A DNA stretch of 64,000 bases from a phage. The stretch is from NCBI GenBank assembly GCA_012813795.1, contig GCA_012813795.1_4087.1; one strand, 5' to 3'. Below are positions 273 to 39,392 of the stretch, in pieces; the stretch's first letter is position 1; each line of letters opens with the position of its first letter. Made by a program: the position numbers and the translations under genes. Under the pieces are notes generated by a model. It saw only the letters and a program-made list of their open reading frames with translations. It was not told the DNA's origin and searched no databases.

Positions 273-2171
273 TTAAAAGAATATATCACGTAGTAAATGT
301 TCTATAACAGGTGCTGTCCAGCCATTACCAAGCATTTTGTACGCTTGTGTTGAACTACTAACTTTGAAGTAGTTTACATCAATTCCTTGCAACATGCAAC
401 ACTCTTGTACTGTTAAATGACGATAGTCCACATTTCGTTTACCCTTCTCAATCAGGAAGTTCCTGTTGATATCAGGGTCTTTGAAAACGATTTGTCTTCT
501 TGACTTATTGAAGTACTGATTCGGATCTCCACCCTTGAAGTAGTTTGCGTCAATGCAATATGATTTATCACGATCAGTATACCAATTACCAGTTAGTATA
601 TCTTGTAATTTTGGTGCTAAAATAAGAGGTTTTGGAATAAACAACTTATCCGAGCTATACCAGTAGTAACGTTGGCGATAATGTGCTGTATAATTTTGTG
701 AATTTATCAAAATTGGTGTCATTTCCAACACGCCATTGATATAATCCTTGAAATCTTCCTTCATCTTAACATTCTCAAAAAGAACTTTCAAGTTAGGATT
801 GAGACTTTTTATGTGCTGGTAAATATCAACCATTGTATGGAATAACATACCACGAGGATCATTCACACCGCCTTGTTTCCCAGCAACTGACCACGCTTGG
901 CAGTTATGAACTACAATATTGTTCGCCGTATATGTGTTATCTACTGCAACTTCAATATTGTAAACGGTTTTCCATTCTCCGGTTGTGGTGTTCGATTTAA
1001 CACCTTTTACCCATGAATATGACCCATCATCATAGAATGCTTCATCTTTTCGGTGCTTTTCTTTTTTGTATGTTAATACGTAATACGGCTTCTGATTAAC
1101 AACACGTTCTTCTATAACTTTTGTTTCAGACGGTTTAAAGTATGTTATGTTAGAATGACGACCATACACATTCATAATTAGTTGTTGTATACCAAGAATA
1201 ACATTCTTTGATGTTGATGTAAATTTTAAACAATCATCTTTCTTGTCATGGTGACCATCTGCGTCAAAATAACCATCAATGAATGCTTTCTGATTAGCGA
1301 TACTTTCAGTGAAAAGTGTGGGGTGTACTTGTTTATTTGAAGCACCCTTACCCATTTGTTCACAAAATTCAACTAGTTCTTTTGAACAAATATAGAATTT
1401 ATAAGATGTTCTTTCTTTAACAAAATTATATTTCATATTCATACCATCAAAACATGAAACCAATTCATCAAATTCATCATGAGCACAGCAAATAAAAACA
1501 CGATATTGATAACTATTTTTTCTATTTTGTCGTTTTACTTTGTAAGTCCATCCATCACCCATAAATCTACCCATGAAATACCAAAAGCTTTCACTCTTGT
1601 TATGTTGAAAATTCACATTACAACGAACATTACATATAGCATGTTCTTCTGTGAGTTCATGTGCATCGATCCATGTAGGTTCTGTATATTCACGAACATA
1701 TTGTCGTTTTTCATTATCCCACTTCTTGCTCATTTTTCTCGCATAAAATGGATGATTATCAGTGCATTCAATTGGTATATGTCCCTGACCTGTGATGATT
1801 CTTGTTGGTGCAATCTTGCTACCAATACTCAATACTTTTTGGTATTGTCCAGTGTGTGTAAGAACCATATCACCAATTTTTATATCTTTTATATCTTTAT
1901 GACCTTCATTTGTCATGATCATGGTTCCTGCTGGGAAGCAAGGAAAACCACCCATCAGAAGATCTATCTTGTCCCATTCGATATCCCATTCTTTCCATCT
2001 AGTTACATCACCCAATTGGATGATATCAGGAAAGTTAGCCTGGGATTCAGCTATAGCAAATTTATCAATTTCAGATGAGTAGTACTTTTCAACTGGTATT
2101 CCTGCACTTTGCAAGGCCATATACCCAACACTCATCCCATTGAATAGTGATAGTACACGTATCGGTTCCAT
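273..2171 (-). CDS. C5-cytosine DNA methyltransferase interrupted by an intein
   Basis: Motif I LSLFNGMSVGY; after intein removal GGFP-CQAWSVAG reconstitutes the PCQ catalytic motif; ENV motif, QECCMLQG and GNGWTAPV C-terminal motifs; exteins total 286 aa. Confidence 0.85.
   Translation of the reverse strand: MEPIRVLSLFNGMSVGYMALQSAGIPVEKYYSSEIDKFAIAESQANFPDIIQLGDVTRWKEWDIEWDKIDLLMGGFPCFPAGTMIMTNEGHKDIKDIKIGDMVLTHTGQYQKVLSIGSKIAPTRIITGQGHIPIECTDNHPFYARKMSKKWDNEKRQYVREYTEPTWIDAHELTEEHAICNVRCNVNFQHNKSESFWYFMGRFMGDGWTYKVKRQNRKNSYQYRVFICCAHDEFDELVSCFDGMNMKYNFVKERTSYKFYICSKELVEFCEQMGKGASNKQVHPTLFTESIANQKAFIDGYFDADGHHDKKDDCLKFTSTSKNVILGIQQLIMNVYGRHSNITYFKPSETKVIEERVVNQKPYYVLTYKKEKHRKDEAFYDDGSYSWVKGVKSNTTTGEWKTVYNIEVAVDNTYTANNIVVHNCQAWSVAGKQGGVNDPRGMLFHTMVDIYQHIKSLNPNLKVLFENVKMKEDFKDYINGVLEMTPILINSQNYTAHYRQRYYWYSSDKLFIPKPLILAPKLQDILTGNWYTDRDKSYCIDANYFKGGDPNQYFNKSRRQIVFKDPDINRNFLIEKGKRNVDYRHLTVQECCMLQGIDVNYFKVSSSTQAYKMLGNGWTAPVIEHLLRDIFF
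903..1940 (-). mobile_element. intein (346 aa) with LAGLIDADG homing-endonuclease domain
   Basis: Starts CFPAGTMIMT (block A), TDNH block B, two LAGLIDADG-like motifs FMGRFMGDGW and AFIDGYFDADGH, ends VVHN followed by +1 Cys. Confidence 0.75.
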
Positions 2172-3050: not shown

Positions 3051-3473
3051 TTACCCTTTCAATTGTTTCTCGATATGGAATGTATTGTATATCTTGTTGT
3101 ACACAGTGTCAATAATTTTCTTAACGTCTGCTAACTCTTCGACAGTTGTGCACACATCACTGATAGTACTTAACTGAAACAACTCTTCTTCAGTACTGTA
3201 CAGTGTTATATCAAATTTGTTGCGAAGTTCATCTTCGATAACGTATTGATTTGTGACAGTATATGATGCAATTTCAACATCCAACAACTTATCACCTTCA
3301 AAAACATTATAAATGAACACAAATGTTAGTTCTTCACTCTCATCATCACTGTAGCTTATATATACATTGTAATTTTCACCATGAAAATCAAGATTGTGCT
3401 CAAACCTATTATCAGGTACTAGTGAATCTATAGGCATTCCCTTTAACAAATCAAAACAATCTCTTGGGTTCAT
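3051..3473 (-). CDS. EEx-FQ-SL paralog family member 1
   Basis: C-terminal TEEELFQLSTI motif shared with six neighbouring ORFs. Confidence 0.6.
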   Translation of the reverse strand: MNPRDCFDLLKGMPIDSLVPDNRFEHNLDFHGENYNVYISYSDDESEELTFVFIYNVFEGDKLLDVEIASYTVTNQYVIEDELRNKFDITLYSTEEELFQLSTISDVCTTVEELADVKKIIDTVYNKIYNTFHIEKQLKG

Positions 3474-3910
3474 TTTACATCCATTTGTCGCTGTTCATCA
3501 ATAAAAAAGATGTTAAAGATAGCTGAACGCATTTTTGTTAGCGTACTCATGAGATATTTTAAATCCTTGAAATCAATATTAAATGTTTGAACCAGTGATT
3601 CCTGGAAATACCCCTCTTCAGTAGTGCATTCACTTACATTTTGTACCTGATATATTTTGATAATATTATCATCACGAAGCATAATTTCTAAGTTATTGTT
3701 ATTAACATTGTGCACGATATACATCTGATCACCATATACCAGATTATTAACTGATAATGATAATACATTATTTTCAATAATAATCTTAAAGCAATTCTGA
3801 CCTACGTATGTGGTATTTTTAATTTGTTCTTCAGGATCAGTCAAACCATCGTTGATAAATTTAATTTTATTAAAAGTACTGATATATTTTTTAACTAATT
3901 TAATGTTCAT
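3470..3910 (-). CDS. EEx-FQ-SL paralog family member 2
   Basis: TTEEGYFQESLV motif. Confidence 0.6.
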   Translation of the reverse strand: MNIKLVKKYISTFNKIKFINDGLTDPEEQIKNTTYVGQNCFKIIIENNVLSLSVNNLVYGDQMYIVHNVNNNNLEIMLRDDNIIKIYQVQNVSECTTEEGYFQESLVQTFNIDFKDLKYLMSTLTKMRSAIFNIFFIDEQRQMDVK

Positions 3911-4287
3911 TGCTTTACCTTAGATAGAGCATAATTCATTATTGACTTGATTTTTTGTAAATTGTCATATGACATTACATGTTTTTCAATTAATGATAGT
4001 TGAAATAATTCTTCTTCAGTTGAATTCAAGTAAACTTCTGAACCATCATAATTTTCAAAATCATAAAGGTATGAAAGACGGTCATCTATATACCAACCAA
4101 TCCATTCAATGGTGTTTCTTTCTTTGAAAACACAAGTATATGGATTATCTCTTGAATCTAAGGTTATGGTTAAACGTAAACATGAATTTGATTGTTGTAC
4201 ACTCTGTCTCCCATAATATACAGTAACCTCATCGGTTTCAATTGATTTATACAAAGCATCAATTTTTCTATCCAATTCATCTACCAT
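3907..4287 (-). CDS. EEx-FQ-SL paralog family member 3
   Basis: STEEELFQLSLI motif. Confidence 0.6.
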   Translation of the reverse strand: MVDELDRKIDALYKSIETDEVTVYYGRQSVQQSNSCLRLTITLDSRDNPYTCVFKERNTIEWIGWYIDDRLSYLYDFENYDGSEVYLNSTEEELFQLSLIEKHVMSYDNLQKIKSIMNYALSKVKQ

Positions 4288-4691
4288 AATCTTACCCTTT
4301 TCAATGCTTTAACTTCGTCAGTGCACGGGAACACAACGAATCCAGTTAATGTTAGACCATCAAAATGGTTGAATCCATAATCATGAATCTTAGTTGCAGT
4401 GAATCCTTCAGCTTTCACTTTATCGAATAGATTAAGCATCTGTTCTTCAGATTTAGCCTTTAAGATAATCTTGCGGCGACCGTCCTGTACCCAAGTACTG
4501 AAATCGTTCAGGATCTTTTCATCTTCATCTCTTGGGTTCTCACCAACAGCATTACAACCACGAATTGATGTACCAGCAACTGTAACCGTGGACCAGATAG
4601 AATCAACCGCATGACCCGCCTGAGCAGCAAGCTTCCCAACTGGCATATCTAAGTCTTCACGAATGATTATGTAACATTTACTTACTGTCAT
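4281..4691 (-). CDS. peptidyl-tRNA hydrolase, Pth2 family
   Basis: YIIIREDLDMPVGKLAAQAGHAV resembles the Pth2 core (vvRtDLkMgkGKiaAQcsHAav); C-terminal pattern also similar; AAAGGAG SD. Confidence 0.75.
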   Translation of the reverse strand: MTVSKCYIIIREDLDMPVGKLAAQAGHAVDSIWSTVTVAGTSIRGCNAVGENPRDEDEKILNDFSTWVQDGRRKIILKAKSEEQMLNLFDKVKAEGFTATKIHDYGFNHFDGLTLTGFVVFPCTDEVKALKRVRLW

Positions 4692-5103
4692 CTACAATCT
4701 CCTTTTCATATTGCTCAAGTATCGAATAGATCTTATTGGAAATGTCCAATGTTTTAACATAATCACAGTACCTGATACACCCAAAATCATACAAAGTACT
4801 AACCATAAAGAATTCTTCTTCAGAGTACTTCTTTTCATTGAATGTAATGGTATTTGTAATTTTTCCAGATTCTGAATATTTTACATAGATAATACTACCA
4901 TTACTTATGTAATCTAATGTCTCTGAATACTTTTCAATACTAGAACTATGTCTAAATTGAATTCCTACAGATTTATCATACCAAAGAGATTTATTTCCGT
5001 CAGTAAGTATAGCATAATCAATCTTACGTTTATCATTGACACACATACCACAATCGGTAATTTTTAGTTTAGTGATATCAATATTCAACAGATCACTTAT
5101 CAT
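4678..5103 (-). CDS. EEx-FQ-SL paralog family member 4 (divergent)
   Basis: SEEEFFMVSTL variant of motif. Confidence 0.55.
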   Translation of the reverse strand: MISDLLNIDITKLKITDCGMCVNDKRKIDYAILTDGNKSLWYDKSVGIQFRHSSSIEKYSETLDYISNGSIIYVKYSESGKITNTITFNEKKYSEEEFFMVSTLYDFGCIRYCDYVKTLDISNKIYSILEQYEKEIVDDSK

Positions 5104-5527
5104 CCAATTCTCCGAATTTGGTTAGAGCAAACACTTTTGCCTCATCATGCAGTTTGTGAATTAGTATGATATTATCATATGTTAAATCTAGTACATTGTC
5201 AACAAGTGAACGTTGAAATAGTATCTCTTCAGATGTGATTTCATGGATGTTTTCTATCTTAATTTCATTGAATGTATCAGTTTCATTTTCTCGCGTACTC
5301 ATGATCAACGTACCACTCGTTGAAATGTATGATATCTTGGTATCCACACCATCAATGGTTGCGTACAGGCGAATTATTTCATATGAATCAGTTAATCTTA
5401 CATTAACCTTAATTTCATCCTCTGTACAAAACCACACACTTTTAGCAAAGAAATTGACACGTACTTTCATATCTTTAAGTTTATTATTTTGGAAATATTT
5501 TAGTACTTTTTTGAATGATATAATCAT
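5093..5527 (-). CDS. EEx-FQ-SL paralog family member 5
   Basis: TSEEILFQRSLV motif. Confidence 0.6.
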   Translation of the reverse strand: MIISFKKVLKYFQNNKLKDMKVRVNFFAKSVWFCTEDEIKVNVRLTDSYEIIRLYATIDGVDTKISYISTSGTLIMSTRENETDTFNEIKIENIHEITSEEILFQRSLVDNVLDLTYDNIILIHKLHDEAKVFALTKFGELDDK

Positions 5528-5544
5528 ATGTATCTCCTTTAGTA

Positions 5545-5940
5545 CTATATCGCATAGTACTTAAATAATGTTTTTAGATCATCAATAGTGAATGGTAAAT
5601 CCTCCAAAAGCAACTGTTGAAAGTAATGCTCTTCGTCAAGATACTTATGTATATTGATGAATGATTTTCTATGATAATCCGCTTTCCATGTAGGTCTTGT
5701 ACCCTTAGTATATTCAGTGAATACAATTTTGTCCATACCATAATCATACACGAATTCATTCTTTTCTGCAACCCCCTGATACTTTAGTTTTACCGGTTCT
5801 TTGCTGATAGAAAATTTATGCTCAGATGATTCATAATAGAATGATGATTGCTGATATTTTGATAAATCAATCTTTGAAAAATCATTTAGATAATAAGAAA
5901 GTTTAATTGTGACGATGCTGCCTATTCGACGACCCAACAT
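5545..5940 (-). CDS. EEx-FQ-SL paralog family member 6
   Basis: DEEHYFQQLLL motif; AGGA SD. Confidence 0.6.
   Translation of the reverse strand: MLGRRIGSIVTIKLSYYLNDFSKIDLSKYQQSSFYYESSEHKFSISKEPVKLKYQGVAEKNEFVYDYGMDKIVFTEYTKGTRPTWKADYHRKSFINIHKYLDEEHYFQQLLLEDLPFTIDDLKTLFKYYAI

Positions 5941-33809: not shown

Positions 33810-39392
<5,583 letters not shown>

Follow-up and report, generated by a model that had tools for sequence, protein, structure and literature searches.

The gene A4_120 of Escherichia phage A4 raises the question of what interrupts its methyltransferase product within the catalytic motif, and of what becomes of an enzyme interrupted at that point. The window, i.e. the whole stretch of 64,000 nucleotides analyzed here (contig GCA_012813795.1_4087.1), is the reverse complement of part of the A4 genome (ON286972.1), and its first 6 kb were 99.4% identical to the deposited record. 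A4, isolated on E. coli LF82, belongs to the genus Asteriusvirus and is a jumbo myovirus of 355 kb. The open reading frame (ORF) at 273..2171 encodes a 632-residue precursor identical to A4_120 (USL83787.1), the record of which carries only the label "DNA-cytosine-methyltransferase" and does not mention an intein. A preliminary description, made from the sequence of the window, had given the length and coordinates of this ORF correctly but left its strand unstated: the coding strand is minus, and the plus-strand translation of the same coordinates was riddled with stops. Very probably, a class-1 intein with a homing endonuclease invaded this methyltransferase between Pro77 and the catalytic cysteine, splices, and homes.

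The insert in motif IV of A4_120

The insert comprised residues 78-423 of the precursor (1940..903 on the minus strand), exactly the 346 residues at 903..1940 that the preliminary description had proposed as an intein, and every motif quoted there was found at its place. The intein and LAGLIDADG profiles suggested there as a check both scored above their cut-offs: Hint_2 (Pfam) gave 36.7 bits (cut-off 28.4), and LAGLIDADG_3 (Pfam) gave 33.8 bits with the precursor and 35.9 bits with the intein alone (cut-off 22.5). The insert scored 421 bits (E 7e-128) with a profile of 38 family members, while Pfam Intein_splicing was under its cut-off (24.6 versus 35.8 bits). The match to phrog_36001 (PHROGs) covered precursor residues 8-433, from the N-extein through the whole intein. 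When all 355 stop-to-stop ORFs of at least 50 residues in the 64-kb window were searched with the family hidden Markov model, no second intein was found, the insert at 903..1940 being the sole match.

The class-1 splicing residues were all canonical: Cys1, the Thr-Asp-Asn-His of block B, the C-terminal His-Asn, and a +1 Cys. In an alignment with 37 relatives, Cys1, Thr60, His63, Asp129-Gly130, Asp228-Gly229, Lys203, Asn346, and the +1 Cys were invariant or at least 90% conserved; Lys203 and Asn346 belonged to the invariant positions, and Thr60, His63, Pro64, and Phe65 were nearly so. An AlphaFold2 model of the intein, built from the relatives' alignment, reached a predicted local distance difference test score (pLDDT) of 93.2 and a predicted template modelling score of 0.90. 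The best solved structures found by Foldseek with this model were inteins bearing an endonuclease, namely TliVMA (7qsu; E 2e-18, template modelling (TM) score 0.69), PI-SceI (yeast VMA1), PI-PfuI, and PI-PkoII, while the endonuclease domain matched I-DmoI (E ~1e-8, target TM 0.6-0.69), in keeping with the alpha-beta-beta-alpha-beta-beta-alpha fold of LAGLIDADG enzymes. These solved inteins (E 2e-18 to 5e-9, TM up to 0.70) have in common with the A4 intein a Hint architecture split by the LAGLIDADG domain and the catalytic residues; on the other hand, identity was only 10-18%, their hosts are V-ATPase, ribonucleotide reductase, and DNA polymerase, and the A4 intein (346 residues) is smaller than PI-SceI, PI-PfuI, and PI-PkoII. 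Judged from sequence and model, the insert is a full-length class-1 intein with a two-motif LAGLIDADG homing endonuclease, which is predicted to splice and to cleave DNA. A group I intron or the insertion of a free-standing endonuclease was ruled out, since the insert was in frame, free of stops, and of the Hint fold; an assembly artefact was ruled out by the five independent genomes that carry the insert.

The joined exteins behaved as one enzyme. The score with DNA_methylase (Pfam PF00145; cut-off 22) rose from 102 bits for the precursor to 123.6 bits for the joined exteins, in one continuous stretch (residues 4-125) across the junction in motif IV, as anticipated in the preliminary description, and TIGR00675 (dcm, NCBIfam) passed its cut-off of 100.65 bits with the joined exteins (116.1 bits), but not with the precursor (96.4 bits). 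Motifs I, IV, VI, VIII, and X of C5-cytosine methyltransferases (C5-MTases) were present in order in the joined exteins, which aligned end to end with the catalytic domains of DNMT3A and DNMT3B (E 2e-22), M.HhaI, and M.HaeIII; GGFPCQAWS fell on their PC motif, in agreement with the earlier placement of the intein directly N-terminal to the catalytic cysteine. By these comparisons, the A4_120 exteins form a predicted compact DNMT3-like C5-cytosine DNA methyltransferase. The match of the 286-residue spliced enzyme to the eukaryotic DNMT3A/3B (E 2e-22) was better than that to M.HhaI and M.HaeIII (E ~2e-18).

The cysteine of the PC motif is the nucleophile of C5-MTases. The intein sits exactly between Pro77 and the catalytic Cys424 of motif IV, and the +1 splicing nucleophile is therefore also the catalytic nucleophile of the enzyme. 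The predicted masses of the precursor, spliced enzyme (286 residues), and free intein were 73.8, 33.3, and 40.5 kDa, respectively, and the sizes of approximately 33 and 40 kDa given earlier for the two products agree with them. The coordinates of the individual features are listed in Table 1.

Table 1. Features of the A4_120 locus; positions are those of the window.
Feature	Position	Strand	Description or basis
Precursor ORF	273..2171	(-)	632 aa + stop; identical to A4_120 (USL83787.1); ORF listing and record comparison
N-extein, aa 1-77	1941..2171	(-)	PF00145 stretch 4-79 = profile positions 1-72; ends with Pro77 (-1)
C5-MTase motif I, LFNGMSVGY, aa 9-17	2121..2147	(-)	Motif reading
Motif IV, first half, GGFP, aa 74-77	1941..1952	(-)	Motif reading
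-1 residue, Pro77	1941..1943	(-)	Motif reading
Class-1 intein, aa 78-423, 346 aa, 40.5 kDa	903..1940	(-)	Hint domain split by LAGLIDADG endonuclease domain
Intein block A, CFPAGTMIMT	1911..1940	(-)	Cys1 = first nucleophile
Intein block B, ECTDNHPF (ECTDNH = intein 58-63)	1746..1769	(-)	TxxH motif: Thr60, His63 (precursor Thr137-Asp-Asn-His140)
First LAGLIDADG motif, FMGRFMGDGW, intein 122-131	1548..1577	(-)	Catalytic Asp129, then Gly130; fold matches I-DmoI
Second LAGLIDADG motif, AFIDGYFDADGH, intein 219-230	1251..1286	(-)	Catalytic Asp228, then Gly229 (FIDGYFDAD228G); LAGLIDADG_3 matches intein 217-283
Invariant Lys203 of intein	within 1320..1337	(-)	Conservation in alignment
Intein blocks F and G, VYNIEVAVDNTYTANNIVVHN, plus +1 Cys	900..965	(-)	His345-Asn346 = C-terminal splice junction (VVH422-N423, C424)
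C-extein, aa 424-632 + stop	273..902	(-)	Starts with catalytic Cys424 of motif IV (CQAWSVAG)
Motif VI, FENV	768..779	(-)	C-extein
Motif VIII, YRQRYYW	660..680	(-)	C-extein
Motif IX, QECCMLQG	384..407	(-)	C-extein
Motif X, GNGWTAPV	306..329	(-)	C-extein

Empty sites and homing footprints in Asteriusvirus-type phages

When the intein-less 121Q gene was used as a blastn query against phage records, the uninterrupted gene (858-861 bp, 286 residues) was found in 48 records, from Asteriusvirus, RaK2-like, GAP32, CBB, and XbC2 phages, so that the intein-less alleles that the preliminary description had proposed to look for in related phages do exist. Exactly five records (A4, TH47, JNE01, UE-S1, and ph0011) broke between nt 231 and 232 and matched again at a distance of about 1 kb. 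The intein-less alleles examined (121Q, Turkey5, EJP2, and GAP32) read GGFPCQAWSVAG, and the reconstructed empty site of A4 is GGTGGTTTTCCT/TGCCAAGCGTGG (here and below, a slash within a sequence marks the junction). Three intein lineages occupied the site: that of A4 (346 residues; the reference), that of TH47 and JNE01 (343 residues; 77% amino acid identity to A4), and that of UE-S1 and ph0011 (340 residues; 54-55%).

Inteins and exteins had discordant histories. The inteins of TH47 and JNE01 were 94% identical in DNA, their exteins only 83%. The JNE01 extein was 96% identical overall to that of intein-less Turkey5, and 98-100% identical outside alignment columns 228-333; within these columns, which begin 3 nt before the junction, JNE01 was 63-82% identical to Turkey5 and 88-98% identical to intein-bearing TH47. 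This tract of about 100 bp bears the signature of co-conversion of the flanking extein during homing, which implies that at least the TH47/JNE01 lineage moved recently. Between TH47 and JNE01, the ratio of nonsynonymous to synonymous substitution rates (dN/dS) was 0.08 for the whole intein and 0.076 for the endonuclease domain; the value for the endonuclease domain of A4 versus TH47 was 0.078, with synonymous sites near saturation in this pair. The exteins of the intein-bearing alleles were also under purifying selection (dN/dS 0.07-0.12). Taken together, the co-conversion tract, the intein/extein discordance, and an endonuclease dN/dS of ~0.08 indicate that homing has probably been recent in Asteriusvirus-type phages.

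The A4 intein was similar to different lineages along its length. Its first ~120 and last ~60 nt were 95-98% identical to UE-S1/ph0011, and the extein on either side of the junction (~110 nt upstream, ~100 nt downstream) was 85-100% identical, whereas the first half of the endonuclease domain was 82-92% identical to TH47/JNE01, and the remainder of the intein was close to neither lineage. The A4 intein is thus a mosaic of two intein lineages, and a recombinant of this kind implies recent exchange during co-infection. A 120-mer of the A4 empty site had no match in 5,426 complete E. coli genomes, and the host chromosome consequently offers no homing target.

The intein was flagged in none of the five Asteriusvirus records: the JNE01 gene (WOL22890.1 in OR670491.1) is labelled "hypothetical protein", the TH47 record (MT446416.1) carries no annotation, and the genome paper on UE-S1 mentions the methyltransferase gene with the intein unnoticed. 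The intein query matched a second place in the ph0011 record (OP557969.1) and one place only in the A4 record; a further intein of this kind, in some other gene, is therefore probable in ph0011.

Upstream of the methyltransferase gene in the window, a run of small ORFs (126-146 residues) was present at 3051..5940 on the minus strand, several of which have in common a short acidic motif (EEELFQLS, EEILFQRS, and EEHYFQQL). These ORFs may be a fast-evolving family of tandem paralogues; they were not linked by BLASTP at 1e-5, and the common motif fell under significance. BLASTP clustering of the window ORFs yielded one pair of paralogues, at 36577..37698, unrelated to the intein, and a search of the window for tRNA and transfer-messenger RNA genes found none.

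Same-site relatives and known systems

An exhaustive protein search covering 1.84 billion representatives returned 5,828 matches at E<=1e-3, 2,217 at <=1e-10, and 719 at <=1e-30. Junctions were read in the best 149 of these 719 representatives. Cysteine was found at intein position 1 in 147 of 147, the His-Asn end in 144 of 146, and the +1 Cys in 145 of 146, while the -1 residue was proline in 137 of the 147 with a readable N-terminal junction (93%). The junction contexts in the same set were FP/CQ (45), SP/CQ (36), FP/CT (11), and SP/CT (9), the others being similar. PF00145 was present in all nine sampled representatives, and in eight of them the match picked up again immediately behind an intein, at profile position 71; in the remaining one, P0180, it did so at position 81, 43 residues past the intein.

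A tblastn search with the intein alone matched 108 phage records, and junctions were read in eleven. The site between Pro and Cys of motif IV was occupied in Mannheimia phage 587AP2, Lactobacillus phage Nyseid, the P1-like phage RCS47 (Dmt), Propionibacterium phage B22, Erwinia phage pEa_SNUABM_5, and EBPR siphovirus 2 (gp44), and Pseudomonas phage Lana had a variant junction, SPD/CT, with Asp at -1. The Erwinia jumbo phages Y3 and phB78 (labelled cytosine methylases) also matched the intein. A word-indexed protein search returned 41 clusters, nearly all with PF00145 and including Paenibacillus cisolokensis; it missed the close Asteriusvirus alleles. Outside these alleles, the closest relative was a protein from a Gracilibacteria metagenome-assembled genome, which matched the last two thirds of the intein at 54-55% identity. 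Among metagenomic proteins, P0003 has Asteriusvirus-like exteins and a shorter intein that has lost the LAGLIDADG motifs, and P0039 and P0040 have mini-inteins at the same site. Sequences matching every stage of the homing cycle were consequently seen: the empty site, the full intein, a decayed endonuclease (P0003), and mini-inteins (P0039 and P0040).

Several observations concern the relatives themselves. The metagenomic C5-MTase P0073 (814 residues) contains two inteins, the first at the PCQ site and ending at residue 333, and the second following motif VI (WENV/C...HN/CGAFS); P0084 has the same ENV/CG junction. In Aeromonas phage PS1 (MN032614.2, 181070-182080), a related intein (27% identity) lies at TP/CH of thymidylate synthase, and its joined flanks scored 139.8 bits with PF00303. 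The PCH motif of ThyA holds the catalytic cysteine, which attacks C6 as in C5-MTases, and the PS1 intein may represent a switch between Pro-Cys active sites. In Mannheimia phage 587AP2 (KP137435.1, 27007-28843), the methyltransferase is annotated as two coding sequences, and the C-extein is out of frame a few codons past CQS, reflecting either a frameshift or a decayed gene. Intein-bearing DNA methylases of RefSeq mycobacteriophages (e.g. NC_031262 gp61, NC_026588 gp68, and NC_011287 gp60) are labelled "anaerobic ribonucleoside reductase large subunit"; PHROG 26446, which bears this name, matched the A4 intein (E 6e-31), and the label on these methylases was probably transferred through the intein.

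The preliminary description suggested that an intein in a DNA methyltransferase might have no precedent. This impression did not hold: Kelley et al. (2016, mBio; PMC5050341) described the inteins DNMT-1 and DNMT-2 in N6/N4 DNA methylases of mycobacteriophages, and a 2025 survey of actinobacteriophage inteins (bioRxiv 10.1101/2025.01.02.630785) names "DNA methylase N-6/N-4 and C-5" among the invaded proteins and, in supplementary file 8, Propionibacterium phage B22 gp50 as "DNA methylase, C-5", class 1, LAGLIDADG. Furthermore, an intein occupies the same Pro/Cys site in numerous public phage genomes, and the metagenomic protein clusters that have it run to the hundreds. B22 gp50 has the same host enzyme family (PF00145/IPR001525), architecture, and insertion point (GGSP/CQDLS) as A4_120, and the two inteins are homologous (27% identity over 346 residues, E 2e-30); unlike A4, B22 is a small actinophage, and the exteins are related only at the family level. 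DNMT-1 and DNMT-2 are likewise class-1 LAGLIDADG inteins in phage orphan DNA methylases (~26% identity, E ~1e-30), but their hosts are PF01555 amino-methyltransferases, and the junction (HV/C...KN/CPLQF in Brocalys) has neither a catalytic cysteine nor a -1 Pro. The homologous inteins of RCS47 Dmt, Nyseid, 587AP2, EBPR siphovirus 2 gp44, and pEa_SNUABM_5 (24-31% identity) occupy the same position as that of A4; in these records the insert goes without an intein annotation, and the DNA target sequences of these phages differ from that of A4. The ShiLan domain and other insertions in an actinophage methylase family, for which within-gene recombination and horizontal transfer have been reported (PMC9957025; PMC11855218), are also mobile elements in phage orphan methylase genes, whereas the A4 element is a textbook intein. 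In the searched text of the 2025 survey, no discussion of the catalytic-cysteine site or of -1 Pro was found. No paper discussing an intein at the catalytic cysteine of C5-MTases, the size of this family, or the Asteriusvirus alleles was found, and a search for a described intein at the PCQ site of C5-MTases brought up just the N6/N4 methylase inteins, the ShiLan papers, and the single B22 entry; coverage of the literature was incomplete, and this is weak evidence of absence.

Splicing, mobility, and the -1 proline

In the scheme proposed for A4_120, the order of the splicing steps follows the standard intein mechanism. After translation of the 73.8-kDa precursor, Cys78 (Cys1 of the intein) would perform an N-S acyl shift at the Pro77-Cys78 bond, trans-thioesterification would move the N-extein onto Cys424 (+1), cyclisation of Asn423 would free the 40.5-kDa intein, and an S-N shift would restore the GGFP-CQAWSVAG catalytic loop in the 33.3-kDa enzyme, which presumably then methylates cytosine in DNA; the predicted junction peptide is ...GGFPCQAWSVAGK. 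Cys424 would thus be used twice, as the splicing nucleophile and subsequently as the methyltransferase nucleophile. It is reasonable to infer that the precursor is inactive until spliced: activity before splicing is unlikely because 40 kDa of intein interrupt the mobile catalytic loop and the amide of Cys424 is engaged in its bond to Asn423. Either the freed intein or the precursor would cut intein-less alleles of co-infecting related phages at the DNA coding for GGFP/CQ, with the predicted cut near GGTTTTCC/TGCCAAGC leaving a 4-nt 3' overhang, and repair would copy the intein and a short flanking tract into the cut allele. The host gene could not easily escape such an endonuclease, because the target DNA encodes a motif constrained by enzyme function. 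The junction DNA differed widely between distant hosts while the protein motif was the same, and the intein lineages must therefore differ in endonuclease specificity.

Four points weigh against this scheme. The preliminary description had passed over the chemically unusual -1 residue: A4 has Pro77 at this position, as 137 of the 147 relatives above also have a native -1 Pro, and the intein literature (two papers) describes -1 Pro in other inteins as incompatible with the N-S acyl shift that opens splicing, so that efficient splicing may not be assumed from generic intein knowledge. The AlphaFold2 model of the whole precursor (mean pLDDT 76) fell below 50 in the catalytic loop (425-442) and the target-recognition region (513-583), and this weakness makes it uninformative on precursor activity. 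No experimental evidence of splicing, cleavage, or methylation was found in the literature for A4 or any family member. Finally, no near-identical intein-less partner of A4 is known; recent homing is accordingly documented for the TH47/JNE01 lineage, and for the A4 copy we infer it. With regard to the proline, the intact exteins, strong purifying selection, and breadth of the family argue that A4-type inteins do splice, and if so, the clade must be adapted to the proline context. Either the -1 Pro family contradicts the reported incompatibility in its native setting, or its splicing is slow or conditional. A wider version of this idea, which we regard as rather doubtful, is that of a large intein clade specialised for Pro-Cys sites (motif IV of C5-MTases, with a related member at TP/CH of phage ThyA), in which -1 Pro would be tolerated or slow or conditional splicing would gate the methyltransferase.

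A possible but on balance unlikely alternative is that the A4 intein splices and no longer moves, its endonuclease being inactive or without a target, so that it is inherited vertically as a harmless passenger at a late stage of the homing cycle. This would be consistent with the A4 extein, which stands farthest from the rest of the group (69-82% nucleotide identity) and for which no near-identical empty allele is known, with the failure to find its empty site in the E. coli genomes, and with the decayed endonucleases of P0003, P0039, and P0040. However, both catalytic Asp-Gly pairs and the invariant Lys were intact in A4, the dN/dS of the endonuclease domain was ~0.08, the sister lineage carried a fresh co-conversion tract, and the recombinant structure of the A4 intein itself implied recent exchange in co-infection. 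More clearly improbable is a regulatory role, in which splicing would be slow or conditional and the intein a post-translational switch or timer of phage DNA methylation; -1 Pro, a disulfide between Cys1 and Cys+1, or a dependence on binding of DNA or S-adenosylmethionine could be the cause. The reported block of the N-S acyl shift by -1 Pro in other inteins, the adjacency of Cys1 and Cys+1 in the folded precursor, and the precedent of a recombinase intein, whose splicing was reportedly induced by single-stranded DNA and DNA damage (PMC5238726) and hence triggered by substrate, would all fit such a switch. On the other hand, no sensor was hinted at in the sequence, the intein-less alleles were the majority and apparently work without a switch, and the spread of the family suits a selfish element better than a regulator.

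That the intein is dead and the A4 methyltransferase effectively a pseudogene appears highly unlikely: the ORF was intact at 632 residues with all splicing residues canonical, the exteins of intein-bearing alleles were under strong purifying selection, and hundreds of diverged relatives retained intact exteins with the methyltransferase motifs, although a -1 Pro causes difficulty in other inteins, the phage may not need the methyltransferase, and the intein-bearing gene of 587AP2 is frameshifted right past the junction. Weak, sub-threshold PT-HINT matches in some relatives and the low Intein_splicing score might point to another Hint-domain insertion (bacterial intein-like or pretoxin-HINT), and an assembly artefact might also be considered; however, Cys1, TxxH, His-Asn, and the +1 Cys were all present, the insertion was exact and in frame relative to the 48 empty alleles, the fold matched true inteins, the window agreed almost fully with the A4 record, and the insert occurred at the same site in four further phages sequenced independently. 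The empty sites and the fold match refute this explanation for practical purposes, and we assign it a negligible probability.

An invasion of A4_120 by a class-1 homing intein remains the preferred reading, and the A4 intein is one unannotated member of a large, little-discussed family of methyltransferase inteins at the same site. The annotation gain is correct but ordinary: an intein should be marked in A4_120 and in the homologous genes of TH47, JNE01, UE-S1, and ph0011. The -1 Pro context is the aspect that might surprise an intein chemist, and if members of this family splice efficiently, they may provide proline-tolerant inteins for traceless ligation; protein engineers deem a -1 Pro context incompatible with splicing. 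If splicing were conditional, the intein would gate the timing of phage methyltransferase activity during infection. Pro/Cys of motif IV in C5-MTases, the site in most of the best 149 of the 719 representatives, is a major and largely undescribed intein site, and it illustrates why inteins favour positions that the host is not free to change: here the enzyme's own catalytic cysteine is the +1 nucleophile. The Asteriusvirus set, with its empty sites, three intein lineages, mapped co-conversion tract, and recombinant intein, makes homing between jumbo phages directly testable.

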